Below are positions 1 through 21,763 of a stretch of 64,000 nucleotides of DNA, piece by piece; the first letter of the stretch is position 1; each line of letters starts with the position of its first letter. This DNA comes from Nostoc sp. DedSLP01 (GTDB taxonomy: Bacteria > Cyanobacteriota > Cyanobacteriia > Cyanobacteriales > Nostocaceae): assembly GCA_034530875.2 (NCBI GenBank), contig JAVRCJ020000031.1, positions 1 through 64,000 of the forward strand, given 5' to 3'. Below the pieces are notes generated by a model. That model was given only the letters and a program-made list of their open reading frames with translations. It was not told the DNA's origin and did not search any database. The position numbers and the translations under genes are program-made.

Positions 1-90
1 AAAAAACCCCCCCCCCCCCCCCCCCCCGGGTTTTTCACAACACCAAACCCCCCCCCCCCGCTTGGGGGGGGGTGGGGTGGGGGGTGGGTA
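1..90. other. Low-complexity poly-C/poly-G stretch, probably a contig-end or sequencing artefact
   Basis: Homopolymer runs of C and G unlike anything else in this AT-rich window. Confidence 0.6.
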
Positions 91-227
91 AACACGATTG
101 TGGGGCAAGAGTTTGAGCTTAAGTTGAAACGTATCTGTGCGCCCCTACGATAATTTGATTTTTAAGAGTGGATTCCAGTTAATTGAAAACTACTTTATGT
201 TCAATACCCAGGAAGTTTGTACTCTTT

Positions 228-1034
228 TTAATTATTTTTTGGTATTGCCAAACTGTGAGAATCAGAGTGAGTTTGACTCTTTAACCATGTTTGCAGCAGA
301 AATTCTAGTACTTGGTCTTTCACTTCTCTAAATTCATGAGAAAACCATTTTTCAACTTTCAGAATGTGATAACCTAATTTTGTTTGAACCGGGCCAATGA
401 CATCACCATCTTTTGCTTCTGCAATAGCTTGTCCTAGTTCTGGCATTAATTCGGAAACAAAACGAATACCTACAAAGCCACCACTTTCTTTAGATTGCTT
501 ACCTTTAGAATATTGTAGTGCTAAGCTACAAAATGCAGATTTATCTTCTTGTAGCGCTTGAACTATTCTTAAGGCTTCTGTGAGATCGGGTACGAGAATT
601 TGAGATAAAGCAACCCGTTTAAAAATATAAGGATCTACTAGATATTGAGTATCTATAGTCGAGCCAAATAGACGTTCTTTTAACTTTTGTGTCAGCAGTG
701 TAACTTTAATACTTTCAGACCACTGTTCTACTGTTAAACGCTGCTGTGCTAGCCATGCCAAGGTTTCTGAAGCTGTTAATAATTTGTGTTCTTGGCGGAA
801 GGTATCACCTGCGGCTTGCAGTTCATCCTCAGAAACAGTAATGTCTAACTGTTCGCAGAGGCGCAAAATCAAAACTTCTTGTTCGGTATCAGCGGCAATT
901 TGTGCAAGTTTATATGAATGGCGGAGATGGTCTAATATTTGTTCGTTTGTTGCGAGTGAAATTTCTGGCAGTTTTAGGGTTGCTAAAAGATTGTCACCGC
1001 TAGAGATTCTTGGTGTAGCTACATTTCCTGTCAT
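228..1034 (-). CDS. Parvulin/PpiC-type peptidyl-prolyl isomerase (foldase), last visible gene of the RiPP cluster
   Basis: 268 aa with rotamase motifs LSQILV, FCSLALQYS, GGFVG and GPVQTKLGYHILKV; starts 5 nt after the AKR stop. Confidence 0.85.
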   Translation of the reverse strand: MTGNVATPRISSGDNLLATLKLPEISLATNEQILDHLRHSYKLAQIAADTEQEVLILRLCEQLDITVSEDELQAAGDTFRQEHKLLTASETLAWLAQQRLTVEQWSESIKVTLLTQKLKERLFGSTIDTQYLVDPYIFKRVALSQILVPDLTEALRIVQALQEDKSAFCSLALQYSKGKQSKESGGFVGIRFVSELMPELGQAIAEAKDGDVIGPVQTKLGYHILKVEKWFSHEFREVKDQVLEFLLQTWLKSQTHSDSHSLAIPKNN

Positions 1035-1039
1035 AATTA

Positions 1040-2053
1040 TTAAGCTCGGTAAATTAGTTTATCTGTAGGAATATTTTGGGTTTGAAAACGATTGCGATGT
1101 AGATCGCCATAAACGTTAAGATAATCTATTTCTTCTTGGGTGAGTTTACCTTTTTGAATGCCTGCGATCGCTGCGTCTATATGTTCCCGTTTTTCTGAAC
1201 CCATGAGGCACACATCTACACAGTTTTGGCTCAAAGAATAGCGGTATAAATCGGGGACTGAAGGTTGCCAACATCCTTCGGGCAAACCAGCAGGCGGATA
1301 CCAAAGGGGCCCGTGCATTCCGGCTGATTTAAAGGTGACAATACCAGTTCGCTGCGGATCGTCAGCTTCTAAATTGTTGAATACGGTTTGTTGAGCAGTA
1401 CGGTGAGCGACATTATGTCTTACCATTGCTACATCTATTAAAGAATTATTCAGCCATTTATTAGCTAAATTTAAATCGTGAAAAGAAGCACCAATGTAAC
1501 GAACGGCTCCCATTTTTTTCAGACGTTCTGAAACACCAAACATTCTTTCGACGATGCGCTCGTAAATGCTACCGGCACCTCTTAAATCTTGAGAACGGTC
1601 TAAGCATTTTTCAAACATTGGCTCATCACTAGTACCAATCCAGCCCCAAAAGAAGACATCAATATAGTCCATTTTTAGGTCTACAAATTGGTCGATGATG
1701 GCTGCCATTGCCGCATCTGGATTTTTGATATAACTCACCGTTGCCAATACCACTTTTTCTCGTACTGAGGAGCCACGACCGCATAATTTCCGCAGTCCTT
1801 CAGACATGTGGCTGTAAAGATAGTGGTGTAAATCGCTGGAGTAAAAAAAGAAGTTAATTCCGCGATCGAAGGCGTAAAGTGTATCTTCACTAGAGATTTT
1901 ACCGCCACCTCCTAATCCCAGAGCGCTAACAGTTAAATCGGTTCGTCCTAGCTTGCGGTAAAAAGGTAAATCGGACTCAGGAAATTGATTGTTTAAATCA
2001 CTAACTTCGTTGGAAGTTGCTACTTTTGGGGCTGCAAGGTCGAGTATTTGCAT
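1040..2053 (-). CDS. Aldo/keto reductase-fold protein with atypical active site
   Basis: RKLGRTDLTVSALGLG, GINFF, DYIDVF and GAVRYIGAS are AKR signatures; ATG overlaps the upstream TAA (TAATG). Confidence 0.85.
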   Translation of the reverse strand: MQILDLAAPKVATSNEVSDLNNQFPESDLPFYRKLGRTDLTVSALGLGGGGKISSEDTLYAFDRGINFFFYSSDLHHYLYSHMSEGLRKLCGRGSSVREKVVLATVSYIKNPDAAMAAIIDQFVDLKMDYIDVFFWGWIGTSDEPMFEKCLDRSQDLRGAGSIYERIVERMFGVSERLKKMGAVRYIGASFHDLNLANKWLNNSLIDVAMVRHNVAHRTAQQTVFNNLEADDPQRTGIVTFKSAGMHGPLWYPPAGLPEGCWQPSVPDLYRYSLSQNCVDVCLMGSEKREHIDAAIAGIQKGKLTQEEIDYLNVYGDLHRNRFQTQNIPTDKLIYRA

Positions 2054-3174
2054 TAGTTCAACGGTGTGTAGATGTCTTCAGAGTTGGCATTAAGATAAGA
2101 ACGGTGTAATTCGATTCCCAACAGAGAGAAGTTTTCCAGAATCGCTTGCATCCGTTCGTTGGGAGAGTTCTTTCCTTGCTGGCTAGCTTGTAACAAGCCA
2201 TTAGCAATAATTTGACAGCGATTGATACCAAAACTTTCTTGGGCTGCAAATCTTTGGTTTGGTTCTTCTGCCAAACTTAGCCCTGGCATTAGTAATTTTG
2301 TGAATAATGGAACTTCTGGGTTAAAGTGCGATCGCTTTTCTGTATAAACACTTTGTAGAATTGGCCGAACAGTTTCGTAGTAGCTTTTCTCAAAGTAAAG
2401 TACTGCTGAGTCATAGCGGCCGTAGTCGCCGGGATTGTATAGTGCTTTAAATGTAAAAGGAATATTAACTTCGTTGAGTTGCTGCGTCAAGCTACCCATT
2501 ACCGCAACTGCACCTTCAGGACTTAAATTAAAGTAAATGCGTACAGTTTGTGGCTGATGATTTGGATTGCCGATAGTTTGCGGCCCGGCATTACCAACTG
2601 CCAAATAGAACCCATTTTGCACTCGATTTCGAGGTAGTCGAATCGCAACTAAGTCGCCTACTGTTGCCGATTGTTCGGCTGGTTGTAAGTGGTAATCGCG
2701 TTTAATATACAGGGTCAAACCACCTTTTGTCACCATCAAGGTATCGTCATTTACTTCCTTAACTACAGACCAATTACCGTCAAAGTAACCTTCTCCAGTA
2801 TTGCTGTTGTGTAAGCGATCGTAAAACGCTACATCTACCCCTAAAAAAGAGTTATTTTCTAAATCTTGGTGTAATTGCAGATTAGATGAATCAGCATCAA
2901 GCGCTAGAGTCGTTTGTAAAGAGCCATTATAATAAATTCCGTAGAGAAAACTACGCAATTGCAAGTTTGAATATCTATTTTGAACATCCTGAGACATCTT
3001 TTTGAAACGAACTACCACCTCTTCTGGCAGATCCAAAGGCTTATAATTTGGATGGCGAATGCAAAAATTAGACTCTATTTGAACGTTATTAACGATATCT
3101 TCTAAAGCATCCCACAGCCGTCTATCTGCTTGTGCTGATTGGTTTTGGGTAAATTCTAATAGTTGAGCAACCAT
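2053..3174 (-). CDS. HopA1-family phosphoSer/phosphoThr lyase (LanY-like dehydratase subunit)
   Basis: Motifs VRIYFN, FTFKAL, GRYDSAVLY, PLFTKLL..GLSLAEEP and ESFG..RC; clustered with an APH kinase and precursor peptides. Confidence 0.8.
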   Translation of the reverse strand: MVAQLLEFTQNQSAQADRRLWDALEDIVNNVQIESNFCIRHPNYKPLDLPEEVVVRFKKMSQDVQNRYSNLQLRSFLYGIYYNGSLQTTLALDADSSNLQLHQDLENNSFLGVDVAFYDRLHNSNTGEGYFDGNWSVVKEVNDDTLMVTKGGLTLYIKRDYHLQPAEQSATVGDLVAIRLPRNRVQNGFYLAVGNAGPQTIGNPNHQPQTVRIYFNLSPEGAVAVMGSLTQQLNEVNIPFTFKALYNPGDYGRYDSAVLYFEKSYYETVRPILQSVYTEKRSHFNPEVPLFTKLLMPGLSLAEEPNQRFAAQESFGINRCQIIANGLLQASQQGKNSPNERMQAILENFSLLGIELHRSYLNANSEDIYTPLN

Positions 3175-3230
3175 TGAATAAGTTAGTTAATAAATATGGT
3201 GAAAATGCTGGAAACTTCCTATTTTTTTGA

Positions 3231-3260
3231 AGTAACAGTGCTAAATAAAGCACTGTTACT
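3231..3260 (-). promoter_or_regulatory. Perfect 12-bp stem-loop without U-tract between precursor A4 and the lyase gene
   Basis: agtaacagtgct-aaataa-agcactgttact. Confidence 0.6.
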
Positions 3261-3295
3261 CTTGCTGAAAACCAACTACTATATAGCGTCAAATA

Positions 3296-3466
3296 CTATA
3301 AAGTAAAAGTTATTGTAATAGTTACAGTGATAGTTAGAGTGATTCCGAGCAAACCACCATTAACGTTGGTTAATTCTTCAGCATTTAGTTCATTGAGAAA
3401 GCTTTCAGAATCTTGAAATAGTTCGGAACCAGCGGGACTTAAGTCGTGCAATTTGATGTTAGCCAT
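3296..3466 (-). CDS. RiPP precursor peptide A4 (56 aa)
   Basis: Manual translation MANIKLHDLSPAGSELFQDSESFLNELNAEELTNVNGG-LLGITLTITVTITITFTL*; AGGAG RBS upstream; leader shared with three paralogs. Confidence 0.92.
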   Translation of the reverse strand: MANIKLHDLSPAGSELFQDSESFLNELNAEELTNVNGGLLGITLTITVTITITFTL

Positions 3467-3500
3467 GATGATTTATCTCCTAATTGAGTTAATTTAATTA

Positions 3501-3545
3501 AGTTATGAACTTTTTAGTTCATGTTTAAATATTGGCATATTGATT
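3501..3545 (-). promoter_or_regulatory. Duplicated upstream block, copy in front of A4, with ATGAAC-N6-GTTCAT palindrome
   Basis: agttatgaactttttagttcatgtttaaatattggcatattgatt, near-identical to 4629-4673. Confidence 0.6.
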
Positions 3546-3634
3546 TGAGTAAAACAACATAAATACAATGCTTTTTCGGGCAGAACTAAAACCTTTATGT
3601 CATGTTTTATTTTCGTTAGTTATCTTATATAGTC

Positions 3635-3673
3635 AAAAAAATCTGCCTTGAGACAATGTGTCATCGAAGCAGA
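3635..3673 (-). terminator. Probable intrinsic terminator
   Basis: Minus strand TCTGCTTCGATGACACATTGTCTCAAGGCAGA followed by T7. Confidence 0.45.
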
Positions 3674-3842
3674 ACTAAAACCTTACCAATTATAAGTTTG
3701 AGAAAAATTCAGGTTATACAACCATACAATTTCCAGCTAAACAGAAGTTTCATCTCTGTTGCCTGCTGAGTTCTGCATTACCTAGAGGGTTATCTGAAGT
3801 AGGTATCAGTTATAATTTTCAGCTTCTGTCTGCAATCTAAAC

Positions 3843-3879
3843 AAAAAAAAGACAGTTCCGCCAAGCAGAACTGTCTTTT
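3843..3879 (-). terminator. Intrinsic terminator after precursor A3
   Basis: Minus strand AAAAGACAGTTC-TGCTTGGCG-GAACTGTCTTTTTTTT: perfect stem plus U-tract. Confidence 0.8.
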
Positions 3880-3895
3880 AGACAAAATTAAAAAA

Positions 3896-4063
3896 TTACA
3901 CAGTTACAGTCCAAGTCATCGGCCAGCAATAAGTAAATGACTCTGTTTTAAAACCTCCTTGCACTCCCAGTTCTGCATCTGTGAGTTCATTGAGAAAGCT
4001 TTCAGAATCTTGAAATAGTTCGGAACCTGCGGGATTTAAGTCATGAATTTTGATAGTAGCCAT
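3896..4063 (-). CDS. RiPP precursor peptide A3 (55 aa)
   Basis: Manual translation MATIKIHDLNPAGSELFQDSESFLNELTDAELGVQGG-FKTESFTYCWPMTWTVTV*; AAGGA RBS. Confidence 0.92.
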   Translation of the reverse strand: MATIKIHDLNPAGSELFQDSESFLNELTDAELGVQGGFKTESFTYCWPMTWTVTV

Positions 4064-4093
4064 CAGTTCTCATCCTTAAATATTGTGTGAATC

Positions 4094-4130
4094 AAAAAAA
4101 AAGACAGTTCCACTAAGCAGAACCGTCTTT
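4094..4130 (-). terminator. Intrinsic terminator-like hairpin after precursor A2
   Basis: Minus strand AAAGACGGTTC-TGCTTAGTG-GAACTGTC plus T-run; paralog of 3843-3879 with one G-U pair. Confidence 0.7.
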
Positions 4131-4146
4131 AAGCAAAACTAAAAAA

Positions 4147-4326
4147 TTACCAAGTCCAAGACCAAGAGTAAGTAACTGTCAAAGTAATAGAAACAGTAAC
4201 CGATTCTGCTCTCAAACCACCATGTACTCCGAGTTCTGCATCTGTTAATTCATTAAGAAAGCTCTCAGAATCTTGAAACAGTTCAGAACCAGCGGGACTC
4301 AAGTCATGAATTTTGATAGTAGCCAT
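4147..4326 (-). CDS. RiPP precursor peptide A2 (59 aa)
   Basis: Manual translation MATIKIHDLSPAGSELFQDSESFLNELTDAELGVHGG-LRAESVTVSITLTVTYSWSWTW*; GAGGA RBS. Confidence 0.93.
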   Translation of the reverse strand: MATIKIHDLSPAGSELFQDSESFLNELTDAELGVHGGLRAESVTVSITLTVTYSWSWTW

Positions 4327-4366
4327 AAGTTATTATCCTCAAAAAATTAATGTGTGAATTACAAAC

Positions 4367-4401
4367 AAAAAAGACAGTTTGACTAAATATGACTATCTTT
4401 T
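4367..4401 (-). terminator. Weakened terminator-like hairpin after precursor A1
   Basis: Minus strand AAAAGATAGTCATATTTAGTCAAACTGTCTTTTTT; degenerate paralog of the other two hairpins. Confidence 0.5.
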
Positions 4402-4417
4402 AAGTAAAACTAAAAAA

Positions 4418-4597
4418 TTACCAAGTCCAAGACCAAGAGTAAGTAACTGTCAAAGTAATAGTAACCGTAACTGATTCTGCTGCTCGACCGCCGTGTACTC
4501 CCAGTTCTGCATCTGTTAGCTCGTTGAGAAAGCTTTCAGAATCTTGAAACAGTTCGGAACCAGCGGGGCTTAAGTCGTGAATTTTGATAGTAGCCAT
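4418..4597 (-). CDS. RiPP precursor peptide A1 (59 aa)
   Basis: Manual translation MATIKIHDLSPAGSELFQDSESFLNELTDAELGVHGG-RAAESVTVTITLTVTYSWSWTW*; AGGAG RBS. Confidence 0.93.
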   Translation of the reverse strand: MATIKIHDLSPAGSELFQDSESFLNELTDAELGVHGGRAAESVTVTITLTVTYSWSWTW

Positions 4598-4628
4598 GAG
4601 ATTTCTCCTAATTGAATAAAGTTAAATG

Positions 4629-4673
4629 AGTTATGAACTTTTTGGTTCATGTCTAAATATTGGCATAGTGATT
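4629..4673 (-). promoter_or_regulatory. Duplicated upstream block, copy in front of A1, with ATGAAC-N6-GTTCAT palindrome
   Basis: agttatgaactttttggttcatgtctaaatattggcatagtgatt. Confidence 0.6.
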
Positions 4674-4825
4674 CAGAAATTAGCTAATATCAAACAGTAA
4701 CTTTTATCCCTTTAATACATCTTTTTTGTCATCTTTTATATTTTGTATTTTGCTAGGGAAATAAATCTGGTACTGCAAATTTTGCGATCGAAGTATGTAC
4801 CTTAATAGATTACTCAACAATAAAA

Positions 4826-4857
4826 GGTGCGTTAGCCTACGGCATAACACACCCTAC
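4826..4857 (-). repeat. GTAG-type REP-like palindrome
   Basis: Minus strand GTAGGGTGTGTTATGCCGTAGGCTAACGCACC. Confidence 0.5.
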
Positions 4858-4993
4858 GAATATATTGGATTTCGCTCGACACATTTGTTATTGAGATATA
4901 GTTATTTTCAACTTGCAAAAATGCAAGAAATGGTGAAACAACACTGTTGTTATTTCACCTAAACCTTACCAATTGCAATTATCAAAAATTTAT

Positions 4994-6175
4994 TTAATTA
5001 TGAGAGCTACTGAGTTGGGTTAATTCTGCTGCTGTCGTTCCAAAAACGGTAGGAATAGATTGCTCTGGACGACACAACAAACTTTTAGCAACCTGAAGCA
5101 TAGAAATACCCATATTGCCAAAAGATTTTTGATATTGAATTATGGACTGAATTGATTGAATCAATGCCAGACCAGAAAATTGCACGACTCGCTTAATAAA
5201 ATCAGGATAGCGAACCAAAATTTCTGGAAAAGATTCTAAATAAGCGCTAATCAAAGCATAAATAGAAGGTTGGAGGGATTCGAGGGGAGTCGTAGCTAGG
5301 CGTAAAGATTCCTCGATAGTCATTTCTTTACTAACAATTAAGCTGTTGAGCCAAATTTGTAGATAGCTGCCGATAATTGTCCCTAAATCGAAAGCAGGAT
5401 CTCCCCAAGCCGATCGCTCCCAATCAATCAATCGCACAATGCCGTTTCCTGATACTTCGGCTTGAGTAAAGAACTGTTCCCAATCTTGATGCAATAAAAC
5501 GTTGTTGAGTTTGAGGTCGTTGTGCGTCAGACATCGCGGCTTGAAAGCTGTACTCAGTTCTCTGAGTGCTTCTCCCAAGCTATCGTATCGCTGATAGAGG
5601 GCAAAAAACTTTAAGCCATCAGCGGGTACAGAACCAAAAATTTCCGGGCCAATCTGCTCCAATTTCCGAATTAAAAGCAACACCAAATCGGATTTGATAT
5701 TATCGGAATTTTGAGAGAAGAAATCGTGATATTTATCGCTATTGAAGGTTTCACGATGGATTGTCGCTATAAAATTACCAATACCTGCTGCGATCGCTGG
5801 CGGGAATATATTTCCTTTCATATAGAAATCGTTTAAATCCCGATAGTTATCTAGGTATTTAAAGACAATAATCGAATTTTCTTTATCGAAATGCAGCGCT
5901 TCTGGTAAAAATGGTTTTGTGTAATTCAGTTCGGGAAACTTTTGTACTAACTCTTGAATTCGCCATTCGTCTAAAAACTCACCTGCTGTTTTTCCTTCCT
6001 GATTGTGCCGTTCTTGTTTAACTAAAAGCTTGCGACCGTCTGACAGAGTGAGCAATAAATTAAAATTTTTAGCAGCTACAGCCTCAATCTTTGCCACAGA
6101 TTGCTCTGATTGAGCCAATAAGTCACGTTCGACTAAATAATCGAAAACATTGTTAGAGTTCAATATAAATGTCAT
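4994..6175 (-). CDS. APH/phosphotransferase-family kinase (LanK-like dehydratase subunit)
   Basis: LLVKQE, catalytic loop THNDLKLNNVL, LIDWE and GDPAFDLG; directly upstream of the precursor array. Confidence 0.85.
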   Translation of the reverse strand: MTFILNSNNVFDYLVERDLLAQSEQSVAKIEAVAAKNFNLLLTLSDGRKLLVKQERHNQEGKTAGEFLDEWRIQELVQKFPELNYTKPFLPEALHFDKENSIIVFKYLDNYRDLNDFYMKGNIFPPAIAAGIGNFIATIHRETFNSDKYHDFFSQNSDNIKSDLVLLLIRKLEQIGPEIFGSVPADGLKFFALYQRYDSLGEALRELSTAFKPRCLTHNDLKLNNVLLHQDWEQFFTQAEVSGNGIVRLIDWERSAWGDPAFDLGTIIGSYLQIWLNSLIVSKEMTIEESLRLATTPLESLQPSIYALISAYLESFPEILVRYPDFIKRVVQFSGLALIQSIQSIIQYQKSFGNMGISMLQVAKSLLCRPEQSIPTVFGTTAAELTQLSSSHN

Positions 6176-6281
6176 AGAGTATCAAATATGAGTAACAAGG
6201 TTAAGCAGTGCAGTTTTCAGTAAAAGAATTCTTTTGTCTTCTCAGATTGTAGACAAAAGGCAGATTACAGGCTCTATTGTG

Positions 6282-6313
6282 AAAAGTTTTACTCCGACAG
6301 AAGTAAAACTTTT
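6282..6313. promoter_or_regulatory. Perfect 12-bp inverted repeat between trmB and the RiPP kinase (terminator or operator)
   Basis: aaaagttttact-ccgacaga-agtaaaactttt. Confidence 0.45.
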
Positions 6314-6467
6314 ATGTCCCCAATCTCCTCTAACTCATTTATCCTGATATGGGGACTAAAAGCCTTCTAAGAGAACAATGCTCTGTAGTTACTCAACTGT
6401 AAGGCGATCGCAGCAATTGAAATTTTGAGCAGCAACTAAAACATTTATGCCCTAAAAACTTTTGCGT

Positions 6468-7124
6468 CTAGAGATTTTGCTGTTGTTCTTCTCGCCTGAC
6501 AAACAAAGCGCGATACACAGGTTCGCCCTTGTTTTGAGTATATATTTCTCGTTCTGTGGGGACTGGTAGGGGATTTTCAGTTAGCCATTCTTCTGTACCA
6601 ATTTTCTGATAAGCTGGATGGGCAGCAAAGCGATCGCGCATTTCCACAGCAATAAATTCCATATCGGATTGCACAAATACAACCCCCCCAACCGCAAGAT
6701 AATTAGCTAATTCTGCCACTAGTTCTGGTTGAACTACACGACGTTTAGCATGGCGGGTTTTAAACCAAGGATCGGGAAATTGAATTGTCACCCGCTGTAA
6801 ACTACCTAAAGGCAGAGAAGCTAAAAGCGATGTTAATGAATTATTCACATTACAAAATAAGTAATGCAAATTTGTTAAACCTAACTGAGAACGCAACTTA
6901 TTTGCCTCCACCACCAACGGTTCCCGAATTTCCAAGCCGAGGAAATTCCAGTTTGGTTCTATCTTGGCCATATTCAATAAAAACAGTCCCTTCGCACAGC
7001 CAATATCTAAATGTAGCGGTTGATTTGGGTTGGTATAAACTTTTTCCCAGTCAAGAGGATTTGCTGGTGTTTGATACTTTTGGGCAAGTGGGTTGACATG
7101 TTGGCGGACTCGGACTGCTGCCAA
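6468..7124 (-). CDS. trmB: tRNA (guanine-N7)-methyltransferase
   Basis: RVRQHVNPL, LDIGCAKG, GLEIR and FPDPWFKTRHAKRR. Confidence 0.95.
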   Translation of the reverse strand: MAAVRVRQHVNPLAQKYQTPANPLDWEKVYTNPNQPLHLDIGCAKGLFLLNMAKIEPNWNFLGLEIREPLVVEANKLRSQLGLTNLHYLFCNVNNSLTSLLASLPLGSLQRVTIQFPDPWFKTRHAKRRVVQPELVAELANYLAVGGVVFVQSDMEFIAVEMRDRFAAHPAYQKIGTEEWLTENPLPVPTEREIYTQNKGEPVYRALFVRREEQQQNL

Positions 7125-7506
7125 AATTTGTTCTCCTTGTTGGTAATTCGTAATTCTGAGTGTTGAAGAAGAATTCAGAATTCAGAATTCAAGACTCAGA
7201 AGAAATTAATAGTAAATCTGAATTATTCGCTGATTTAAGACTAATAAATCTATCATTTAATAGGTCTTAAATCAGTTTATTTATTCACCAGTCAGAATTC
7301 ATTCTTAATTCTGGCTCCTGACTTCTGAATTCTATTTTAAAATCCATCTCATCAAGCTAAAAGTGAATTGTTACTATAAAGTGTCATTGATGCTGAATGT
7401 TTAAAAATGTTAAGTATACCGATTTATCGGCACTGAAATCAAGTAAGAGTTATACTTTTTGGAAAAGACTTGTTTTAGCTCCTCCTTTTAACATTTTTAT
7501 AAATCG

Positions 7507-12575: not shown

Positions 12576-15500
12576 TTAACTAACAAGCTTCTCTCCTTTG
12601 AGCATCCGTGATGCAGCTTCTAGTAACGCTTCTTCAAGATAAGGCTTGGTAAAGTAGCCACTTGCACCGAGTTGAACTGCCATTTGTCTGTGCTTGTCTG
12701 CACCCCGTGAGGTGAGCATCGCAATGGGTAGGTGGTTGAGGTTGGAATCTTTCTGGATGCGAGAGAGTAACTCCAGACCATCGCAACGCGGCATCTCAAT
12801 GTCACAGAATACGATATCACAAGGTAGACCAGAACGGAGTTTATCCCAAGCTTCCTGACCATCACGCGCTTGTTCTACGCGATAACCTGCTTTGTTGAAT
12901 GTCAAAGAAAGCAATTCTCGGACTGTGATTGAGTCATCAACAATTAGCACCGTTGGGTCAATCTTGGTAGCTGGAGCATCTGTAGGAGTAGATTTTTGTT
13001 GCCAAGAACCGCCACCAACTTGTGTAGAAATTCTTCCTTGGAAGATGTCGATGATTTCTAGCACGTCGGCGATAGGCATAATCCGACCATCACCGAGAAC
13101 TGTGGCGCCAGCTACACCAATGGGTTTAGGCGCTGGCCCTTCAAATTGTTTAATTACAATTTCTTGTTCGCTCAACACCAAATCAATCTGTAGAGCAATC
13201 AGCGTATTTGCCGATCGCACCACAACCACAGAAACCATATCATCATCTCGGTTACCGCCATACACATTACCGCGACTAATTTGGCGATTGAAAGTTAAAA
13301 GTTCTTTCAAAGGTCGGAATGGCAGCAGAGTATCGCGCCAGGAAATAAATGATTGTCCGTTGGCGTTATGCTGAATGTTTTTGACTGGGATATCGAGGGT
13401 ATCTTCTACACCGTCCATCGGGAAAGCAATTCTGGCTCTATCGGAGACACAACACAGAGCTTTACAAATACTCAAAGTCAGCGGCAAACGAATTGTGAAA
13501 GTCGTTCCCTTGCCAATTGCAGAATCGGTATTTACTGTACCCCGAATTTCGCTAATTGCCGAACGCACCACATCCATACCGACGCCGCGGCCAGAAATTT
13601 CGTCTGCCTGGTCTTTGATGCTAAACCCAGACTGGAATAATAGATCGTAGACTTCCAGGCGAGATATGGTTTTCGCCTGAGCTTCTGTAATCATGCCAAT
13701 TTTGATTGCCTTAGCCTTAACCCGTGCGGGATCGATACCTGCGCCGTCATCGCCTACAGAAATTACAGTTTGATTACCTTGGTGGAAGGCACGGATAGTA
13801 ATGATGCCTACAGGTGGCTTACCAGCAGCTTGCCTTTGTTCTGGCGTTTCAATCCCGTGAGCGATCGCATTATTGAGCATGTGCGTCAGCGGATCGGTGA
13901 GATGATCTAAAATCATCTTGTCAATTAAAGTATCGCCACCTTCAATTACCAACTCCACTTGTTTGCCGCACTTGATGGCATTGTCGCGCACACCCCGCCG
14001 CCAGCGATCGATTGTTTGGGCAAAAGGCACCATTCGCGCTCTAGTCAGTCCCTCTTGTAGCTGGGTAGTTACCTGGCGGAATTGCCGTGCGACTCGTTCG
14101 GTTTCTTCGGTAACGAAATCAATGTCACTAGCTGACTCCCGCACTCGGACAATACGCTCAATCATCTGCTGGGAGAGGGTGTGGAAGGGAGTAAAGCGAT
14201 CCATTTCTAGTTCGCTAAAACCTCTATCGGAATTAGAGTCCTGTGAATCGGAGCCAGAGTCTTTACCTTTGCGTCCGGCTAACAAAGAAGCTTCTAAAAG
14301 CGATCGCTCGTACAACTCTTGCATCCTTGCTCCCACATCCGAGAGTTGTTGCACCTGAATCAGCAAGTTATCTAGTGATTGCCGCAGTCTTTCGTGATCC
14401 TGCTCCAAGGTGTTGCGATTCACCACCAACTCGCCAACTAAATTACTCATATCGTCCAGTTGCTTAACTGGAACCTTCATCGTTTCTTCAAATCTTGTAG
14501 CACGACGATTAGAGGGACGTGGAGTTTTATTATTTGTGTTTGTTTTTGCCAGCGCCGAGTGTGATATTGTTTGATCCGCTTCTGCCAGCAACTTCTCCAA
14601 GTCGCTAAATTCATCTATGCGTGGTGATGGAGTCGCAGTTGTCGCTGGGATTGGTTGAGTTAAAGGTTGGGGTTGGCGTAATCCGTCGTAAGCACCGCTA
14701 GATACGGCTGGCTCATTCTTATCTGTACCCAGCAATTCTTCCAAAGCAGCAAAATCTAAGTCTGGTATCTCCTTAGCTTTGGAGACAGGCGCAACTTCTT
14801 CTCCTAGTAACGCTTCCAAATTCGCAAATTCATCTTCTACAGCAGCTACTTCAACCGTTTCTGCTAATTCTTCAGTAGGTGCAACAGTGCTTTCTGATTC
14901 TAGTGCAATTGCCAAATTCGCTTTTAGATTATCATCTGTTTCTACACTTTCTTGAATAGTTGTTTGTCCAAATTCTGCTGCGTCTTCTCCTAATTCTGTT
15001 TCTAACAAAGGAGTTTCTGTAAACAAAAAATCATTCGCAAAATTCAGGTCTGCACTTTCCAAAGCTGCATTTTCTGCGAACTCCAAAGCAGTTTCTAAAC
15101 TATTATTTTCAGTATTTAAAACTTCTGGGTTTGTCTGGAATAAAGTAGAAGTTTCTAAAGCCAATAATTCAGCCGCCACATCATCTGTGGTTTCCATCTG
15201 AATATAGGTGGCATCATTAACGGCTACATCCTCAAACAGTAGCTGTGAATTTTCATCAACAGAATCGAATAAATCGCCTAGTTGTGCTTGGGGTAATTCG
15301 GAAGTTTCTAAAGCCGATAATTCAGCCACCACATCATCTGTGGTTTCCATCTGGATATAGGTGGCATCATTAACGGCTACATCCTCAAACAGTAGCTGTG
15401 AATTTTCATCAACAGAATCGAATAAATCACCTAGTTGTGCTTGGGGTAATTCGGAAGTTTCTAAAGCCGATAATTCAGCCGCCACATCATCTGTGGTTTC

Positions 15501-18164
15501 CATCTGGATATAGGTGGCATCATTAACGGCTACATCCTCAAACAGTAGTGGTGAATTTTCATCAACAGAATCGAATAAATCACCTAGTTGTGCTTGGGGT
15601 AATTCTGAAGTTTCTAAAGCCGATAATTCAGCCACCACATCATCTGTGGTTTCCATCTGGATATAGGTGGCATCATTAACGGCTACATTCTCAAACAGCA
15701 GTTGTGAATTTTCATCAACAGAGGCAAAAGAATCAAGGTCTAGTTCCGGAGGTGTTTGAGCAGAATCAATAGTAGATATCTCTGGGGACTGATTAGTAAA
15801 TTCTGGAATAAAATCTACAGCTTCTGGTTGTTGCGATAAGTTGTGAATTTCCTCTACTACAGGATACTGAGCGAATAATGGGGTTGATTCTTCTATTAGC
15901 AGTGATTCGCTAATTTCAGGAAAAATTGTTGAATTATTTGGTGTTAAATCCTCAAATAAATCATCATTAGTATCCGATGATAATATCAGATCTAGTTGTT
16001 CTTCATCCTGGAAATTTAAATCAAAATCTTCTATTTCAAAACTGTTTATAGGAGAAGCAGCAGACTGTTGACTATCAGCAAAAATATCATCAGTCGCAGT
16101 AAATAAATTTTCTTCTAAGGCATTTTCTATATTATGTTCAATTAAGGAGTCAAATTCGTTTTCTAGTTGTACTGTAGTTTCTTGATTCCAGAAATTGCTC
16201 AAATCGTCTTCTGTTGGAGAAAAATCAGATGCCGTTTCCGGAGGTGTATCAAATAAATTACTAATTTGTGAATCAGTCGTAGATAATAATTCTTCTGTTT
16301 CTATTTCAAATGGATTTTCTAATTCCAAATCTTGTGACTGAGGTAATTCTATGTAGTCATTAGAAGTAATTTCTTTTACCCAGTTTTTATTTTCAGTTTC
16401 TAACAAGAAGTTATCAAGATTATTTTCTCGATCGCTCGATAATTCTATACTCTGGTTAACCTCATTTTCTGATTGAGTTACATCGCCTATACTCAAGAGG
16501 TCGTTTTCATCATCTAGTGTTATTGCCAATAAATCTGCAAACAAATCGTTATCATTGTCGCTGGTTTTGACAATTTCTTCTATTGGTTGTTCTAAAAATT
16601 CTTGTAAAATATTCTCGGAATTTAAATCGAGTTCGTTGAGTTCGTTTAACTCTATATTCGTCGCCAAGATTTCTCGATCTTGCTGTTTGGGATTTTCCTT
16701 TTCTAGGAAGTTTTCACCAAATAACAGAGATAAATCTTCTGTCTTAGCTGTGGTTGTGGCTTGCTGTTCGTTACTGGCGGTATCTTCATCAAATGAGAGT
16801 AAATCTGATAAATCACCATCAGTATCCTCAGTTTCATTGCTGGCGAAGTCAATTCCTAATGCATCTGTATCAGTAATATCTAAACTTGCTTCTGGTTGCC
16901 AATTTTCATCTAGGTCGGGAGTTTCGCCTTCAAATAAATCGGCAAGGGTATTTAACTCAGCTATTCCTACCTCTGGGCCATTCGGATCGTGGTTTTTACT
17001 GATGGGATGCACTTCCTCATGTGATGTGAGAGGAAAGTTAATTAAAGGTGCGGCGTTGAGCGATCGTTGTAACTCGAAAGACGAGGATTCATTAATATCT
17101 TCGTCTAGATTAAGTTCTTCAATTGGCTCAGATAAGTTAGTTATAGCTAACTGTTGGCTGTCCTCAGTCTCTTGAGGAATTGGTTCTGGTAAAGACTGTT
17201 CGTCAGCCAAATTAGCAGCAACTTCTAACAACTCAATTTCTGCGAAGTTCAAAAGTGCTTCTAGTTGTTGACTAATTGCAATTTCGGCTTCCCTGCCTTG
17301 TAGAACTAATTCTTGAGCTTGCTTGATTTCAGTGATGACAATTTTAGCTAAAGTGAGATAAGTATTTTCTGGATTGGCGATCGCACTTGCTGCGGCTTGA
17401 CACAAACCGCACCAGTTGGGCAAATTCCAAGCCTCACCAAGTTTGACTAACTGGTAACAGCATTCTTGGAGATTTTGCCGAGTTGAAGATGTTGTTGTTT
17501 GCTTAAACAGTTGCAACATTTCCCGCAGTGTTTGTAGCACCTGGGTTTGAAACTCGCTCCAATCGCGATTTTCGTTGGCGTTGGCTGAGGATGATGCCTC
17601 CCCAGATGCAGAGAAAGATATTTCTGTAGTTTCTTCTGCCGAACCGGGAATATCTCGCCGCAGGAAAAGTTCTGTGAGTGTGGAGACATTCTCTACAGAA
17701 CCTGCCAGTTCTGTTGCAGATGTGGCTGCTCCACTGTTTCCTTGTTCTACAAGTTGTTCTAAATGCTCGTTTAGCCACTTAAAGACAGGCTCGGTTTCTG
17801 ACATTAATGTATTAGCTGTCTCTTCAGAAAGCCCATAAGGCCCGCTTAAATGCTCTAATAGTGCTTTGAGGGTATCAGAGACGCCGAGAAATAAAGACTC
17901 TAACTTTTGGTCAATCTGAACCGGATGTTCTTTAAGAACTTTGAAACAATCTTCCAGACGGTGGGATGTATGCTGGATGCTAGTCAAGCCAAGCATTGCA
18001 GCTCCTCCTTTGATAGAGTGAGCCGCCCGGAAGACTTCGCTAATCATTTCCGGGTCGTTGAGGGTACTTTCCAGATTTAGCAACCCTTGCTCAATGGTAT
18101 TGAGATGGTCTCTGGCTTCTTCAATAAAGTAACCCAAAATCCGCTGTTGTTGTTCCGGCAGCAT
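12576..18164 (-). CDS. hmpE: CheA-like hybrid kinase (Hpt, acidic linker, HATPase, CheW, REC)
   Basis: FRAAHSIKG Hpt, NNAIAHGIE, DDGAGID, SGRGVGMDVV, CheW domain and C-terminal receiver. Confidence 0.9.
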   Translation of the reverse strand: MLPEQQQRILGYFIEEARDHLNTIEQGLLNLESTLNDPEMISEVFRAAHSIKGGAAMLGLTSIQHTSHRLEDCFKVLKEHPVQIDQKLESLFLGVSDTLKALLEHLSGPYGLSEETANTLMSETEPVFKWLNEHLEQLVEQGNSGAATSATELAGSVENVSTLTELFLRRDIPGSAEETTEISFSASGEASSSANANENRDWSEFQTQVLQTLREMLQLFKQTTTSSTRQNLQECCYQLVKLGEAWNLPNWCGLCQAAASAIANPENTYLTLAKIVITEIKQAQELVLQGREAEIAISQQLEALLNFAEIELLEVAANLADEQSLPEPIPQETEDSQQLAITNLSEPIEELNLDEDINESSSFELQRSLNAAPLINFPLTSHEEVHPISKNHDPNGPEVGIAELNTLADLFEGETPDLDENWQPEASLDITDTDALGIDFASNETEDTDGDLSDLLSFDEDTASNEQQATTTAKTEDLSLLFGENFLEKENPKQQDREILATNIELNELNELDLNSENILQEFLEQPIEEIVKTSDNDNDLFADLLAITLDDENDLLSIGDVTQSENEVNQSIELSSDRENNLDNFLLETENKNWVKEITSNDYIELPQSQDLELENPFEIETEELLSTTDSQISNLFDTPPETASDFSPTEDDLSNFWNQETTVQLENEFDSLIEHNIENALEENLFTATDDIFADSQQSAASPINSFEIEDFDLNFQDEEQLDLILSSDTNDDLFEDLTPNNSTIFPEISESLLIEESTPLFAQYPVVEEIHNLSQQPEAVDFIPEFTNQSPEISTIDSAQTPPELDLDSFASVDENSQLLFENVAVNDATYIQMETTDDVVAELSALETSELPQAQLGDLFDSVDENSPLLFEDVAVNDATYIQMETTDDVAAELSALETSELPQAQLGDLFDSVDENSQLLFEDVAVNDATYIQMETTDDVVAELSALETSELPQAQLGDLFDSVDENSQLLFEDVAVNDATYIQMETTDDVAAELLALETSTLFQTNPEVLNTENNSLETALEFAENAALESADLNFANDFLFTETPLLETELGEDAAEFGQTTIQESVETDDNLKANLAIALESESTVAPTEELAETVEVAAVEDEFANLEALLGEEVAPVSKAKEIPDLDFAALEELLGTDKNEPAVSSGAYDGLRQPQPLTQPIPATTATPSPRIDEFSDLEKLLAEADQTISHSALAKTNTNNKTPRPSNRRATRFEETMKVPVKQLDDMSNLVGELVVNRNTLEQDHERLRQSLDNLLIQVQQLSDVGARMQELYERSLLEASLLAGRKGKDSGSDSQDSNSDRGFSELEMDRFTPFHTLSQQMIERIVRVRESASDIDFVTEETERVARQFRQVTTQLQEGLTRARMVPFAQTIDRWRRGVRDNAIKCGKQVELVIEGGDTLIDKMILDHLTDPLTHMLNNAIAHGIETPEQRQAAGKPPVGIITIRAFHQGNQTVISVGDDGAGIDPARVKAKAIKIGMITEAQAKTISRLEVYDLLFQSGFSIKDQADEISGRGVGMDVVRSAISEIRGTVNTDSAIGKGTTFTIRLPLTLSICKALCCVSDRARIAFPMDGVEDTLDIPVKNIQHNANGQSFISWRDTLLPFRPLKELLTFNRQISRGNVYGGNRDDDMVSVVVVRSANTLIALQIDLVLSEQEIVIKQFEGPAPKPIGVAGATVLGDGRIMPIADVLEIIDIFQGRISTQVGGGSWQQKSTPTDAPATKIDPTVLIVDDSITVRELLSLTFNKAGYRVEQARDGQEAWDKLRSGLPCDIVFCDIEMPRCDGLELLSRIQKDSNLNHLPIAMLTSRGADKHRQMAVQLGASGYFTKPYLEEALLEAASRMLKGEKLVS
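15148..15722 (-). repeat. 153-bp (51-aa) near-perfect tandem repeat, about 3.8 copies, inside the HmpE linker
   Basis: DSVDENSQLLFEDVAVNDATYIQMETTDDV(V/A)AELSALETSELPQAQLGDLF; tcatctgtggtttccat recurs every 153 nt. Confidence 0.95.
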
Positions 18165-18175
18165 AGCAAAAGTTA

Positions 18176-18263
18176 TGAGTTATGAGTTGTGAGTTGTGAG
18201 TTATGAGTTGTGAGTTATGAGTTGTAATTTTTATTTTTAACTCCTCACTCCTAACTCCTAACT
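18176..18263. repeat. STRR 7-nt tandem repeat with inverted partner
   Basis: (tgagtta/tgagttg)n ... (taactcc)n. Confidence 0.8.
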
Positions 18264-18266
18264 TTT

Positions 18267-21206
18267 TTACCTACTTTCCAAGGTTTCCACTCGGAAACGT
18301 TCCACGGAGGCTATCAAGTCACGGGATACACCTACTAAGTGTTGTAGGGCACCAGAAACTCGCTGTGCTTCTTGGGAGGTTTCTTGGGCTGTGAGTTCTA
18401 CTGATTGCATTACATGAGCAACGGCGCGGGAAGTCTCGGTCTGTTCCACAGTATCGCTAGTGATGGAACGTACTAGAATATCGATGCGATTTGCCACTTG
18501 AATGATGTTTTCTAGCGATCGCTTGGCTTCTTCTGCCAATTTTGTGCCTTTAATTACTTGTTGTGTACCTTCTTCCATCGCGGTCATTACTGAGCCTGTT
18601 TCGCTTTGGATTTGCATCACAATTTGTTCGATTTCTTTCAAGGATTTGGCAGATTTATCTGCTAACTGGCGCACTTCATCTGCTACGATCGCAAATCCGC
18701 GTCCAGCTTCTCCCGCCCTTGCCGCCTCAATACTGGCGTTGAGTGCCAGCAAGTTGGTTCTGGAAGCAATCTGAGAAATCAACGCCACAATTTTAGAAAT
18801 TTCTTGTGAAGATTCCGCTAATCTCTTCACTTTTCGAGTTGTTTCGGCAACGGTTTCTCGAATTTCTAAAATCCCTGCCACAGTATTTTCTACTGCTTCG
18901 CCACCCTTGAGAGCGATCGTACTTGCATCGCGGGCGACGGTTTCGGCTTCCCGCGCCGCCTCTGCTACCCGCTGAATCGAGTCGGTCATCACCTGTACGG
19001 AATTCAGCGTTACTGCCAATTCTTCTGCTTGGCGCAAAGCATCGCTAGATAAAGCTCTAGCAAAGGTTTCCGAATTGGTTGCACCTTTGGTCACTTCCTT
19101 GGCAGCGACTTTTACCTGTTGAACGATATCCCGTAGGTTTTGAATTGTCAGGTTAAAGGCGTCGGCTACGGCTCCCAAGACGTCAGCTGTGACTTCAGCT
19201 TGCACGGTTAAATCACCTCTAGCAGCTCCTTCCACATCGTCCAGCAGGCGAATCACCTGGCGTTGCAGATTTTCTTTAGCTTCCTCTTGTTCGTCAGCTT
19301 TGCGTTGGGCTTCATTTGTGGTCGAGAAAATTACTCGCGCCATTTCATTAAAGCCACTGGCTAAATGTCCCAATTCATCTTCGGAATACACCGTGGCTTG
19401 AGCATTGAGATTTCCTTGACGCACAGCCTCAAACTGATTTTGCAAATCCTTAGTTGTGCGGCGAATTTGCTTGAGTGTCAGATTCCCCATAAAGCCAGCG
19501 GTAGCAAAACCAGTCAGTCCAGCAGCTAGTGCCATTGCCCAACCTGTATTTCGCACACTTTCCCTTTGTTGGGGAACAGAAAATGTGGTGGCGGCAAAGC
19601 TGACTGTAGCAACAACTAGTGCTGAGGCAATACCCACAGTCCCAGCAATTAACCATTGCTTTCTTTCTATGGGTGCATTTTCTAATGGTGCTAACCAGCC
19701 TTGCTCGACGCTAACATTGGGTTCTACCTTCGAGACATCTGGTTGGGTAAAAGCTGGAACTGGTTCGTGCGAACCAGTAATCGAAAATAATTCCTCTTCC
19801 CGATCTGCTGCATTACTTGAAAAAGCTTCGACAACTTGAGGGCGTCCGCTACTACCGATTTCTGCTGCGGCAGAATGCATTGCCACATCACCAAAATCAG
19901 AATCTCCTTCAATGAGGTCAAACCCTGGAATATTCCCTAAATCATCAAATTCCTCAAAGTCATCTAAAAATTCAATATTGCTCCTAGAATTTTCTCGACT
20001 CAGTATATTATTTGAGCCTTCATCAGAGCTGATGTTGTCCGACCCAAAAGCAGACTCAAATGCTTCAATATCAAAGCTTTCATCGTCATCAAAGCTATTT
20101 TGAGTGAAGAATTCAGCTGATTGAAATTGCTGCTTTTTATCCAAGATGAAATTGTTGCTTGCAGATGGAGAATCATCAGAAAAACTTGGTTGAAATTCCG
20201 ACTCTGTATCCAAGTCTTTTTGTTCTAACCAATTCTTGGGTTCAGTTTCTGATAAATCATCTTGAGTTTGAAATTCTAAACTATTGGTTGCAAAACTATT
20301 GTTCAGCTCTTTCTCAGCAATCAGTAGAGTTTCTTCTTGAAAATGAGGTTGTTTATGGTTTAAACTCTCAGTACTCAAATTTTGAGTCTGTGGCTCACTC
20401 AAAAACTCAGCAAAATTATCTTTAGTATTATCATTGTCTGAGTTAGAAGATGAAGAGTAGTTAAGGTCTTCAATAGGTGGAATTTCGTTCGTGTAACTTA
20501 TTTCATTTTGTGTAAAATGATTATTACCTAATGATTCTTCTGCAATCTCTTCAGAACTATCTTCTTGCCAAAAAGCAGGTAACTCTAATGCTGTTTTTTC
20601 CTCCCAACTGTTGCCATTTGATTCTTCCTCTAATTCTTCATTGAGGGCAAAAGGATCTTCAGCAAAAGGAGAAGAATCTGAGATGTTTTCTGTTGCAATA
20701 CTGGCTTCTGTGGGTATATCAAATGGGTTATTTGAAGATAGTTCTTCAACTGCATTCACAGTTTCTGGAATCTCTTCAAAAAAGTTCAAATCCAGGTTTT
20801 TGCTGTCAAATTCATCACTAGCGGGCAAATCTTCTAATTCTTCTTCCCTATATCCCAGTGGGTCGGACATCTCTAGGGAATTTATTTGCTCTTGACTTGC
20901 GGATGTATCAATCTGACCGCCAAATGACTGTAGGTATTGATTGATATTCTCAATCCCATTATTGGCAAAACCAATAATTTCTGGGTCGTTAGTCAAGTTT
21001 AATACCTGTTGATATTCTTGTTTTGCGACATCGTACTGCTGCAAAACGTAGTAGATGTGACCCCTTAATAAATGGGAGTTCGGGTCATCGGGTAAACTTT
21101 GCACCACCTGGTCAACTAATGTGGCGGCAACGTCATAATTTCTTTGAACGTAGGCGGTCATCGCCTGTTGATATGTTGGCTCGTAATCATCAATACTTGC
21201 TGCCAT
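18267..21206 (-). CDS. hmpD: Methyl-accepting chemotaxis protein with N-terminal TPR (PilJ-like)
   Basis: TPR, 2 TM, HAMP and [34 protein letters not shown]; start moved to ATG 21206 with GGAGGAGG RBS. Confidence 0.9.
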
Positions 21207-21220
21207 TTCCTCCTCCAATT

Positions 21221-21751: not shown

Positions 21752-21763
21752 ATTGCTTTATCC

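Follow-up and report, generated by a model that had tools for sequence, protein, structure and literature searches.

The DNA stretch analyzed here (hereafter, the window) comprises the initial 64 kb of contig C31 in the genome (G000) of the cyanobacterium Nostoc sp. DedSLP01; near its start, it carries four small genes, A1 to A4, for peptide precursors in which Ser and Thr recur at every second position of the predicted core. A1 (4418..4597, minus strand) encodes a 59-aa protein consisting of a 37-aa double-glycine (GG) leader and the 22-aa core RAAESVTVTITLTVTYSWSWTW; A2 (4147..4326, minus strand; 59 aa) combines a 37-aa GG leader with the core LRAESVTVSITLTVTYSWSWTW; A3 (3896..4063, minus strand; 55 aa) has a 37-aa GG leader and the core FKTESFTYCWPMTWTVTV, which contains the only Cys residue (Cys9) in the four cores; and A4 (3296..3466, minus strand; 56 aa) consists of a 38-aa GG leader and the uncharged core LLGITLTITVTITITFTL. 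The precursor genes lie, on the same strand, between those of a LanK-like Ser/Thr kinase with the aminoglycoside phosphotransferase (APH) fold (4994..6175; 393 aa; Pfam APH, 2.9e-8) and a LanY-like phospho-Ser/Thr lyase of the HopA1 family (2053..3174; 373 aa; Pfam HopA1, 4.5e-58). The lyase gene is followed by those of a divergent aldo-keto reductase (AKR)-fold protein (1040..2053; 337 aa; Pfam Aldo_ket_red, 34.6 bits with a cut-off of 24), the start of which overlaps the lyase stop by 1 nt, and of a cytoplasmic parvulin-type peptidyl-prolyl isomerase (228..1034; 268 aa, including a ~140-aa N-terminal domain; Pfam Rotamase, 3.8e-15). All these genes, in the order kinase, A1-A4, lyase, AKR-like protein, parvulin, are on the minus strand.

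An AGGAG/GAGGA-like ribosome-binding site, read from the sequence, is located 5-9 nt 5' of each of the four ATG codons. The leaders share the form MA(T/N)IK(I/L)HDL(S/N)PAGSELFQDSESFLNEL...GG and end in ...L(T/N)(D/A)(A/E)EL(G/T)(V/N)(H/Q/V)(N)GG, that is, in the pattern L-x3-E-L-x-V-x-G-G, the double-glycine leader consensus being of the L-x3-E-L-x2-(I/V)-x-G-G type. The two glycines, G36 and G37, are invariant across 65 aligned precursors. The DNA sequences encoding the leaders of A1 and A2 differ by 12 synonymous and no nonsynonymous changes, and at the orthologous loci described below, the ratio of nonsynonymous to synonymous differences (pN/pS) is 0.17 for 27 unique 37-aa leader DNAs and 0.07 for 10 unique 38-aa leaders. 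Thus, the A1-A4 leaders are under strong purifying selection and the genes are coding. In addition, there is a weak match (19.7 bits, with a cut-off of 21.5) between the end of the A4 leader and TIGR03949, a class IIb bacteriocin family.

Counted from the GG, all 31 Ser and Thr residues of the four cores are at odd positions, and each of the 32 even positions from 6 on is occupied by V, I, L, M, F, Y or W. When the residues of each core were shuffled 5000 times, the odd/even imbalance yielded p = 0.0008, 0.0006, 0.0076 and 0.0018 for A1-A4, respectively; the cores are paralogues, and these tests are not independent. A first-pass annotation of this DNA had described four open reading frames (ORFs) of less than 60 aa with ribosome-binding sites and a near-identical 37-38 aa GG leader, Ser/Thr at odd positions 5-21 of A1 and A2, G3 followed by T5-T17 in A4, the series T3, S5, T7, C9, P11, T13, T15, T17 in A3, and hydrophobic or aromatic residues at even positions from 6 on. 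Direct reading of the sequence recovers all these features, and the picture of double-glycine precursors with a conserved leader and variable cores was borne out as well. The description of the genes as unannotated stands only insofar as they are absent from the ORF track, an effect of the 60-aa cut-off of the scan: the four exact peptides are already present in the NCBI nr database, where the members of the respective clusters are labeled "hypothetical protein" or, in one case, "bacteriocin-like protein".

The same annotation had proposed collecting homologous cores, and we did so starting from the lyase. For the HopA1 protein, there are 521 confirmed relatives in the species-representative genome collection; the best 80 loci all come from cyanobacterial records. 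A hidden Markov model of the leader detected 205 precursors in 78 of 82 loci, again, all in cyanobacterial records. Eight loci, each in a different genome, are orthologous (the window, L002-L007 and L009; L008 also belongs to this set but lacks the upstream flank). Together, they encode 37 precursors, the cores of which comprise 26 unique sequences and fall into five types, and the odd register is kept throughout: odd positions hold 198 of the 200 Ser/Thr residues in the unique cores. All 26 cores have either Ser or Thr, with both residues occurring, at positions 5, 13 and 15; positions 7, 9 and 11 are Thr or Ser plus some Pro or Cys, and the even positions are hydrophobic. Substitutions at odd positions remain within Ser/Thr, length changes come in two-residue steps, and 25 of the 26 cores are of even length. 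Cys is present in 5 of the 26, and the SFTYCWP motif is kept in all five unique A3-type cores. The same alternating register was found in a ninth genome. In one of these nine genomes (L121:2601-2900; G026:C40), an A4-type gene retains the leader and "LLG" followed by an unrelated sequence (LLGASQFCKNKERK...) and, apparently, is a disrupted copy.

Outside the orthologous loci, the picture is different. The leader family is represented in 83 of the 127 Nostoc species genomes and the alternating locus in 9 of the 127. Ser/Thr periodicity at p<0.01 was detected in none of the 163 unique cores from the 73 other loci, and periodicity was likewise not detected in any of the 74 unique cores from 36 metagenome loci found with A1 as the query; two distant T-rich cores, in L055 and L056 (Coleofasciculaceae), show partial alternation with a slipping register. 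Hence the register that had been described as invariant is so among all 37 precursors at the orthologous locus and in the ninth genome, but not in the wider family.

The kinase and lyase genes are adjacent in 79 of the 82 loci, and the catalytic residues of both proteins are conserved. The residues H218, D220, K222, N225 and D251 of the kinase (HxDxKxxN and DWE motifs) are kept in 72-73 of 73 homologues; by its sequence, the protein is related to LxmK, a subunit of class V lanthionine synthetase, but not an equivalog. In the lyase, R212, K243 and Y260 are present in all 81 homologues and R253 in 79 of these. The K-x9-R-x6-Y spacing is the same as that of K219/R229/Y236 in CaoY, the cacaoidin lyase (numbering from PMC9486802), a match by spacing rather than by alignment to CaoY; mutagenesis showed that K219, R229 and R187 of CaoY are important for phosphate elimination (PMC9486802). 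Thiazole/oxazole (YcaO) and ATP-grasp chemistries were considered and dropped because no such enzyme is encoded in the cluster, and the match of A1 to an ATP-grasp target family (0.0067; 16 bits, with a cut-off of 32) is noise.

The AKR-like gene follows the lyase gene in 48 of the 82 loci and is always accompanied by the parvulin gene, which is present in about as many; in the remaining loci, both are missing together. The AKR-like protein, with at least 63% identity across 34 sequences, is conserved more strongly than the lyase and has 548 relatives at E<0.001. One of these, P0054, is a natural 591-aa fusion of an N-terminal HopA1-like domain (27% identity to the window lyase, E 2e-29) with a C-terminal AKR-like domain (30%, E 2e-31); the domain order matches that of the two overlapping genes in the window, and the fusion functionally ties the AKR-like protein to the lyase. 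Distant relatives of the AKR-like domain are also found at the C-terminus of 700-1100-aa proteins with long HEAT-repeat regions and once behind a JmjC/cupin domain (P0138, P0139, P0142, P0145, P0147, P0149, P0129 and P0104). The fold assignment comes from an AlphaFold2 model that was obtained from a 103-row alignment, with a mean predicted local distance difference test score (pLDDT) of 89.7, and that supersedes a first model from 34 close homologues (pLDDT 52). The best Foldseek matches of this model are aldo-keto reductases (E 1e-12; template modeling score of about 0.6), whereas a single-sequence search of the PDB yielded only marginal matches (best E 0.0075); a protein atlas returned "aldo/keto reductase" labels only.

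The parvulin matches TIGR04500, "putative peptide maturation system protein", only weakly (65 bits, with the cut-off at 180), and inspection of the translation by eye, with no predictor, revealed no obvious N-terminal signal peptide. A modeled complex of a precursor with the AKR-like protein and the parvulin scored 0.20, with the mark at 0.32, and provides no evidence either way. Many of the aperiodic cores (L010-L081) begin with x-(S/T)-P, often (S/T)-P-x-C, and a kinase that would produce pSer/pThr-Pro beside a parvulin recalls Pin1-type recognition. Among the unique cores, 35 of the 108 from loci with the AKR-like/parvulin module have an [ST]P dipeptide within the first six residues, compared to 3 of the 52 from loci that lack the module and none of the 26 alternating ones; the sequences compared are related, and this contrast is only a lead.

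The cluster does not end with the parvulin gene. In Nostoc linckia NIES-25 (orthologous locus L003), it continues with a CPBP/Rce1-like membrane protease and, on the opposite strand, a second parvulin, an HlyD protein and a C39-peptidase ABC exporter (14901-17117; Peptidase_C39, 3.4e-41, with ABC_membrane and ABC_tran) that is encoded beside HlyD. The counterparts of these four genes in the DedSLP01 genome are outside the window, on contig C2 (C2:212-5975), with 88-97% identity to those of L003; the exporter copy (C2:3762-5975) is 97% identical. An assembly break thus splits the cluster between the contig end at window 1-228 and G000:C2:1-5975; a C9/G12 homopolymer hairpin at 47-73, by the contig end, may have caused the assembly to stop. 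On the other side, upstream of the kinase, are housekeeping-type genes (a trmB-like methyltransferase, a metallophosphoesterase and FIST), which also flank L003, so that the cluster borders are clear. The same genome contains a paralogous cluster (L001:2413-18704, that is, C40:24413-40704) with five precursors of the same leader family that have long aperiodic cores. These are followed by a kinase, a HopA1 lyase, an AKR-like protein, a parvulin and a class II LanM (DUF4135 and LANC_like); a transposase-like helix-turn-helix gene, a C39 ABC exporter with an N-terminal cyclic-nucleotide (cNMP)-binding domain, HlyD and a second parvulin lie opposite to them.

Starting from the observed genes, leader conservation, periodicity, neighborhood, conserved catalytic residues and phylogenetic restriction, we infer a pathway, with its chemical steps, product and activity, that could operate as follows. 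The conserved leader would dock the peptide on the LanK-LanY pair; the kinase would phosphorylate the Ser/Thr at alternate positions of the core, from which the HopA1-type lyase would then eliminate the phosphate. In this way, seven to ten residues per peptide would be converted to dehydroalanine (Dha) or dehydrobutyrine (Dhb), alternating with unmodified L-hydrophobic or aromatic residues, and in A3, one thioether may additionally form from the single Cys9. The AKR-fold protein and the parvulin would act next or alongside, the leading candidate chemistry being reduction of Dha/Dhb to D-Ala and D-aminobutyrate (D-Abu), as in cacaoidin. The C39-peptidase exporter and HlyD encoded on contig C2 would then cleave after the GG and secrete very hydrophobic 18-22-mers, and the CPBP-type membrane protease could protect the producer itself. 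The register would reflect selection for a single face, or a single stereochemical class, recurring with every other residue, with the phase kept by descent and two-codon indels. We are moderately confident in the joint proposition that A1-A4 are translated precursors of a kinase/lyase (LanK/LanY) pathway for peptides that are made by the ribosome and modified after translation (RiPPs) of the class V lanthipeptide type, that the odd-position Ser/Thr are dehydrated, and that the register is maintained by selection on the product. Most likely, the odd-position Ser/Thr become Dha/Dhb; by analogy with cacaoidin, these may subsequently be reduced to D-residues. Such products would probably be unusual peptides that carry extensive modifications and seek membranes.

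Several observations weigh against this interpretation. The kinase scores 96 bits (E 2.1e-27) with the NCBIfam LxmK model, the equivalog cut-off of which is 315. A search with the kinase as the query (phmmer, E 1e-5) identified no second APH-type, LanX-like protein in the window or at the orthologous loci, although more diverged ones would be missed. Given that three of the four cores are Cys-free, the products would not be lanthipeptides in the strict sense, and linear poly-dehydro peptides of this kind are not known to have been described. Some cores have Pro at an odd position (7, 11 or 17), a misfit with the notion that all odd positions are modified alike. Furthermore, the nine genomes come from close relatives and the core types are paralogous, so the independent observations of the register are few, about five core types. 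The D-amino-acid step, in particular, is weakly founded because none of the four catalytic tetrad residues of AKRs is present in the sole reductase-like protein: in the profile alignment to 1ynp and 1pyf, in which we take the tetrad positions to be those marked by the motifs DxxxxY, xTK and xxH, the residues D, Y, K and H are replaced by F70, L75, V106 and G137.

Opposite the Asn and Gln by which AKRs hold the nicotinamide, the AKR-like protein has F191 and M210 in the profile alignments, and a Phe-Lys-Ser-x-Gly stretch is found where the stacking Tyr-Ser-Pro-Leu-Gly loop is expected; the family has a near-invariant polar set of its own (N67, R98, D132, H192, D207, R212, N214, Y270 and R271). 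The protein encoded at 1040-2053 is an AKR fold with a different active site. Hydride transfer by this protein is possible, albeit not supported by the usual signatures, and it can be regarded as a candidate Dha/Dhb reductase or a candidate non-redox subunit of the lyase. Pfam scans of the ORFs of the window cluster and L003 identified no reductase of the LanJA, LanJB or LanJC type; the rest of the genome was not searched for one.

In the most far-reaching version of the pathway, dehydration would affect all odd-position Ser/Thr, and the lyase-coupled, tetrad-less AKR-fold protein would subsequently hydrogenate them to D-Ala/D-Abu. This protein would represent a fourth, NAD(P)H-type LanJ class, and the outcome would be a strictly alternating D/L peptide with an aliphatic N-terminal half and a Trp-rich C-terminal half that could form a gramicidin A-like beta-helical membrane channel. 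We consider this full scenario rather unlikely. The three known LanJ classes, as listed in PMC9811515, depend on zinc (LanJA), flavin (LanJB) and F420H2 (LanJC), and an AKR-type LanJ would be new. Literature searches on aldo-keto reductases in lanthipeptide D-amino-acid formation and on ribosomal gramicidin-like products yielded no characterization of peptides of the A1-A4 type.

The register could, alternatively, be imposed by the enzymes, with the kinase/lyase complex fixing the leader and threading the core as an extended strand, so that only one parity, counted from the GG, reaches the active site. This parity is indeed identical in the 26 unique cores of five types despite the different first four residues (RAAE, LRAE/LRVA, FKTE/FRTQ, IISL and LLGI/LFSI, with the first Ser/Thr at position 3 or 5), and the alternating loci have a kinase/lyase clade of their own (90-92% lyase identity among the eight orthologous loci, at most 68% to the rest) along with a distinct gene order, in which the precursors lie between the kinase and the lyase. 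However, enzyme sets with 59-68% lyase identity, including the paralogue on contig C40, are associated with aperiodic cores, the T-rich cores of L055 and L056 alternate in another or a slipping register, and CaoK-CaoY dehydrate 8 of the 9 Ser/Thr residues of CaoA, including the adjacent S1-S2 as well as the alternating ones. The occurrence of aperiodic cores with related enzyme sets, even in the same genome, is the main reason for attributing the constraint to the product and not to the enzymes, and the common parity is explicable by descent from one ancestral gene with two-codon indels. The register, then, does not follow from a rule shared by the enzymes across the family; it is better accounted for by selection on the product, and threading by the enzymes appears improbable. 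The "enzyme- or structure-imposed selection" suggested in the first-pass annotation survives in its structural part, with which selection on product structure is compatible, whereas the aperiodic cores speak against a ruler common to the enzyme family.

Product selection could also act on peptides that remain largely unmodified, namely, amphipathic beta-strand bacteriocins with a hydroxyl face and a hydrophobic face that self-assemble or form beta-sheet pores, in which case the kinase and lyase would modify few or no positions or serve other precursors. Beta-strands classically show such an alternation of polar and beta-branched hydrophobic residues; Thr, Val and Ile strongly favor this conformation, and peptides of the (Val-Thr)n type serve as fibril models. 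Moreover, a GG leader, a C39 exporter and a CPBP protein also belong to the equipment of unmodified class II bacteriocins, and the single "bacteriocin-like protein" label mentioned above points in the same direction. Yet the precursor genes are inside a kinase-lyase operon, and Ser/Thr account for 37% of the residues in the alternating cores compared to 19-20% in the other cores of the leader family. Substitutions at the odd positions preserve the hydroxyl, not beta-branching or size, and a dehydration substrate needs this hydroxyl, whereas a plain strand face does not strictly. We therefore regard unmodified beta-strand bacteriocins as an unlikely alternative to dehydrated products.

Finally, it is highly unlikely that the pattern is an unselected by-product of slippage, with the cores being expanded (ACT-NTN)n hexanucleotide repeats that gain and lose whole dipeptide units: Tandem Repeats Finder does detect period-6 and period-12 arrays within the cores, ACT makes up 18 of the 23 (78%) core Thr codons compared to 254 of 687 (37%) in the 23 long ORFs of the window, and core lengths differ by multiples of two residues, but these repeats are imperfect (77-92% matches, 2-3 copies), the even positions run in order from aliphatic to aromatic residues instead of repeating a single one, nine species retain the pattern with only Ser/Thr replacement at odd positions, and the A3-type cores are periodic without being repeats. 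Under selection on the product, which we prefer, inheritance by descent and slippage of 6-nt repeats help preserve the register.

The precursor region also contains regulatory candidates. Two terminator- or attenuator-like hairpins with T runs are on the minus strand, one (4100..4130; 14-bp stem) directly 3' of A2 and the other (3847..3879; 15-bp stem) directly 3' of A3; such attenuators are usual 3' of RiPP precursor genes. Upstream of A4, there is a 429-bp non-coding spacer (3467..3895, assigned to neither strand) that is 78-88% identical at the orthologous loci, contains no ORF, leader-like remnant (tblastn) or Rfam match, and could be a candidate promoter or 5' untranslated region for A4 and the downstream enzymes. 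Lost precursor genes were considered for this spacer and rejected, given the lack of remnants in the tblastn search; the stretch is conserved and non-coding. It holds two copies of GCAGAACTAAAACCTT (near 3581 and 3670), and some orthologues have one or two extra precursor genes, of the IIS... and LFS... types, beside it. An Rfam search of window positions 1-7500 found nothing in the precursor region and only one chance match to a microRNA model, a G/C hairpin at the contig end. Farther into the window, an unrelated chemotaxis-like gene set on the minus strand (12576-22129) encodes a 1862-aa CheA-type hybrid kinase (Hpt, HATPase, CheW and receiver domains) and a 1003-aa methyl-accepting protein (TPR, HAMP) followed by CheW- and CheY-like proteins.

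Other core types recur within the family. Repeated N-A-N-T-x or N-x-N-T motifs (e.g., ...NANTVNANTYGNANTVV), with a different internal periodicity, are found in L058, L059, L074, L080, L082, L089, L090, L130, L132, L133 and L136. Ten loci without the AKR-like/parvulin module (L015, L018, L020, L021, L028, L031-L033, L035 and L039) instead encode a second, divergent kinase/HopA1 pair, with short cores ending in S-L-L-L-C-type sequences, and these look like true class V-style lanthipeptide clusters in cyanobacteria.

The large cyanobacterial branch of kinase/lyase RiPP pathways has no member with a known product. With predicted modification sites that are both unambiguous and numerous, the alternating subgroup offers the easiest access to this branch. 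At stake is whether the LanK/LanY pair is able to produce linear peptides carrying as many as ten dehydroamino acids at even spacing, and what the AKR-fold/parvulin module adds. If the module is a reductase, it would provide a simple, oxygen-tolerant, genetically encoded way to install a D-residue at every second position and, with it, a ribosomal counterpart of gramicidin; if not, a new activity of a tetrad-less AKR-fold protein remains to be found.

Among the known systems, cacaoidin and the other class V lanthipeptides, or lanthidins (LxmK/LxmY), share with A1-A4 the combination of an APH-type kinase, a HopA1-type lyase and a leader-bearing precursor with multiple Ser/Thr. The CaoK-CaoY heterodimer dehydrates CaoA eight times (PMC9486802), and in the CaoA core, Ser/Thr alternate with other residues from position 10 to 20 (PMC8068269), that is, over 11 residues (S10-S20), these Ser/Thr being turned into Dha, D-Ala or D-Abu. 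Therefore, dehydration of alternating Ser/Thr by a kinase/lyase pair followed by conversion to D-residues has an experimental precedent. Unlike the cacaoidin cluster, the present one encodes no LanX-type cyclase, cysteine decarboxylase or F420H2 reductase, and three of its four cores contain no Cys; the host is a cyanobacterium rather than an actinobacterium, the leader is of the double-glycine type with a C39 exporter, and the alternation extends over nearly the whole core. According to a 2025 review, class V lanthipeptides are known only from actinobacteria.

Ser/Thr-rich, Cys-free precursors of Nostoc are also encoded by the Npn cluster of Nostoc punctiforme (NpnA/NpnJA), for which a review describes a proposed route to linear D-amino-acid peptides via dehydration and hydrogenation. 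Npn is grouped here with other LanJ-dependent D-amino-acid peptides (lacticin 3147, carnolysin and bicereucin); in contrast to the present cluster, it relies on a different dehydratase and a zinc/NADPH LanJA reductase.

The cores further resemble, and only resemble, the L-positions of the nonribosomal peptide gramicidin A, with aliphatic L-residues followed by four alternating aromatic or Trp residues in the core of A1 or an orthologue. If Ser/Thr became D-residues, the result would be an alternating D/L chain, a likeness, again as a resemblance only, to gramicidin A and the polytheonamides. The route would involve dehydration and hydrogenation, as opposed to a nonribosomal peptide synthetase in the case of gramicidin A and a radical S-adenosylmethionine (SAM) epimerase in that of the polytheonamides; no formyl or ethanolamine capping machinery is present in the cluster, and in some cores, the N-terminus is charged or odd positions are taken by Pro.

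As a family, A1-A4 belong to the cyanobacterial HopA1-associated precursors denoted "Family 1A" by Eyles et al. 2021 (PMC8153245) and "type-B" by Liang et al. 2022 (PMC9486802), with which they share the GG leader, hypervariable cores, several precursors per cluster, the HopA1/phosphotransferase pair and the restriction to Cyanobacteria. In PMC8153245, Family 1A comprises 570 peptides in 183 clusters, and its cores are called highly variable, without conserved Ser, Thr or Cys; candidate type-B LanA peptides were catalogued by genome mining (PMC9486802). No product, structure or activity of any cyanobacterial member was found in the literature covered, which leaves out most subscription journals. 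The alternating orthologues from Nostoc linckia NIES-25 and z15 are among the rows of the supplementary peptide table (Network 1 of PMC8153245), whereas the searched text of PMC8153245 and PMC9486802 does not mention an alternating subgroup. Thus, while the family as such is already catalogued bioinformatically, the alternating peptides are a real, sharply defined and hitherto unremarked subgroup of an uncharacterized pathway.

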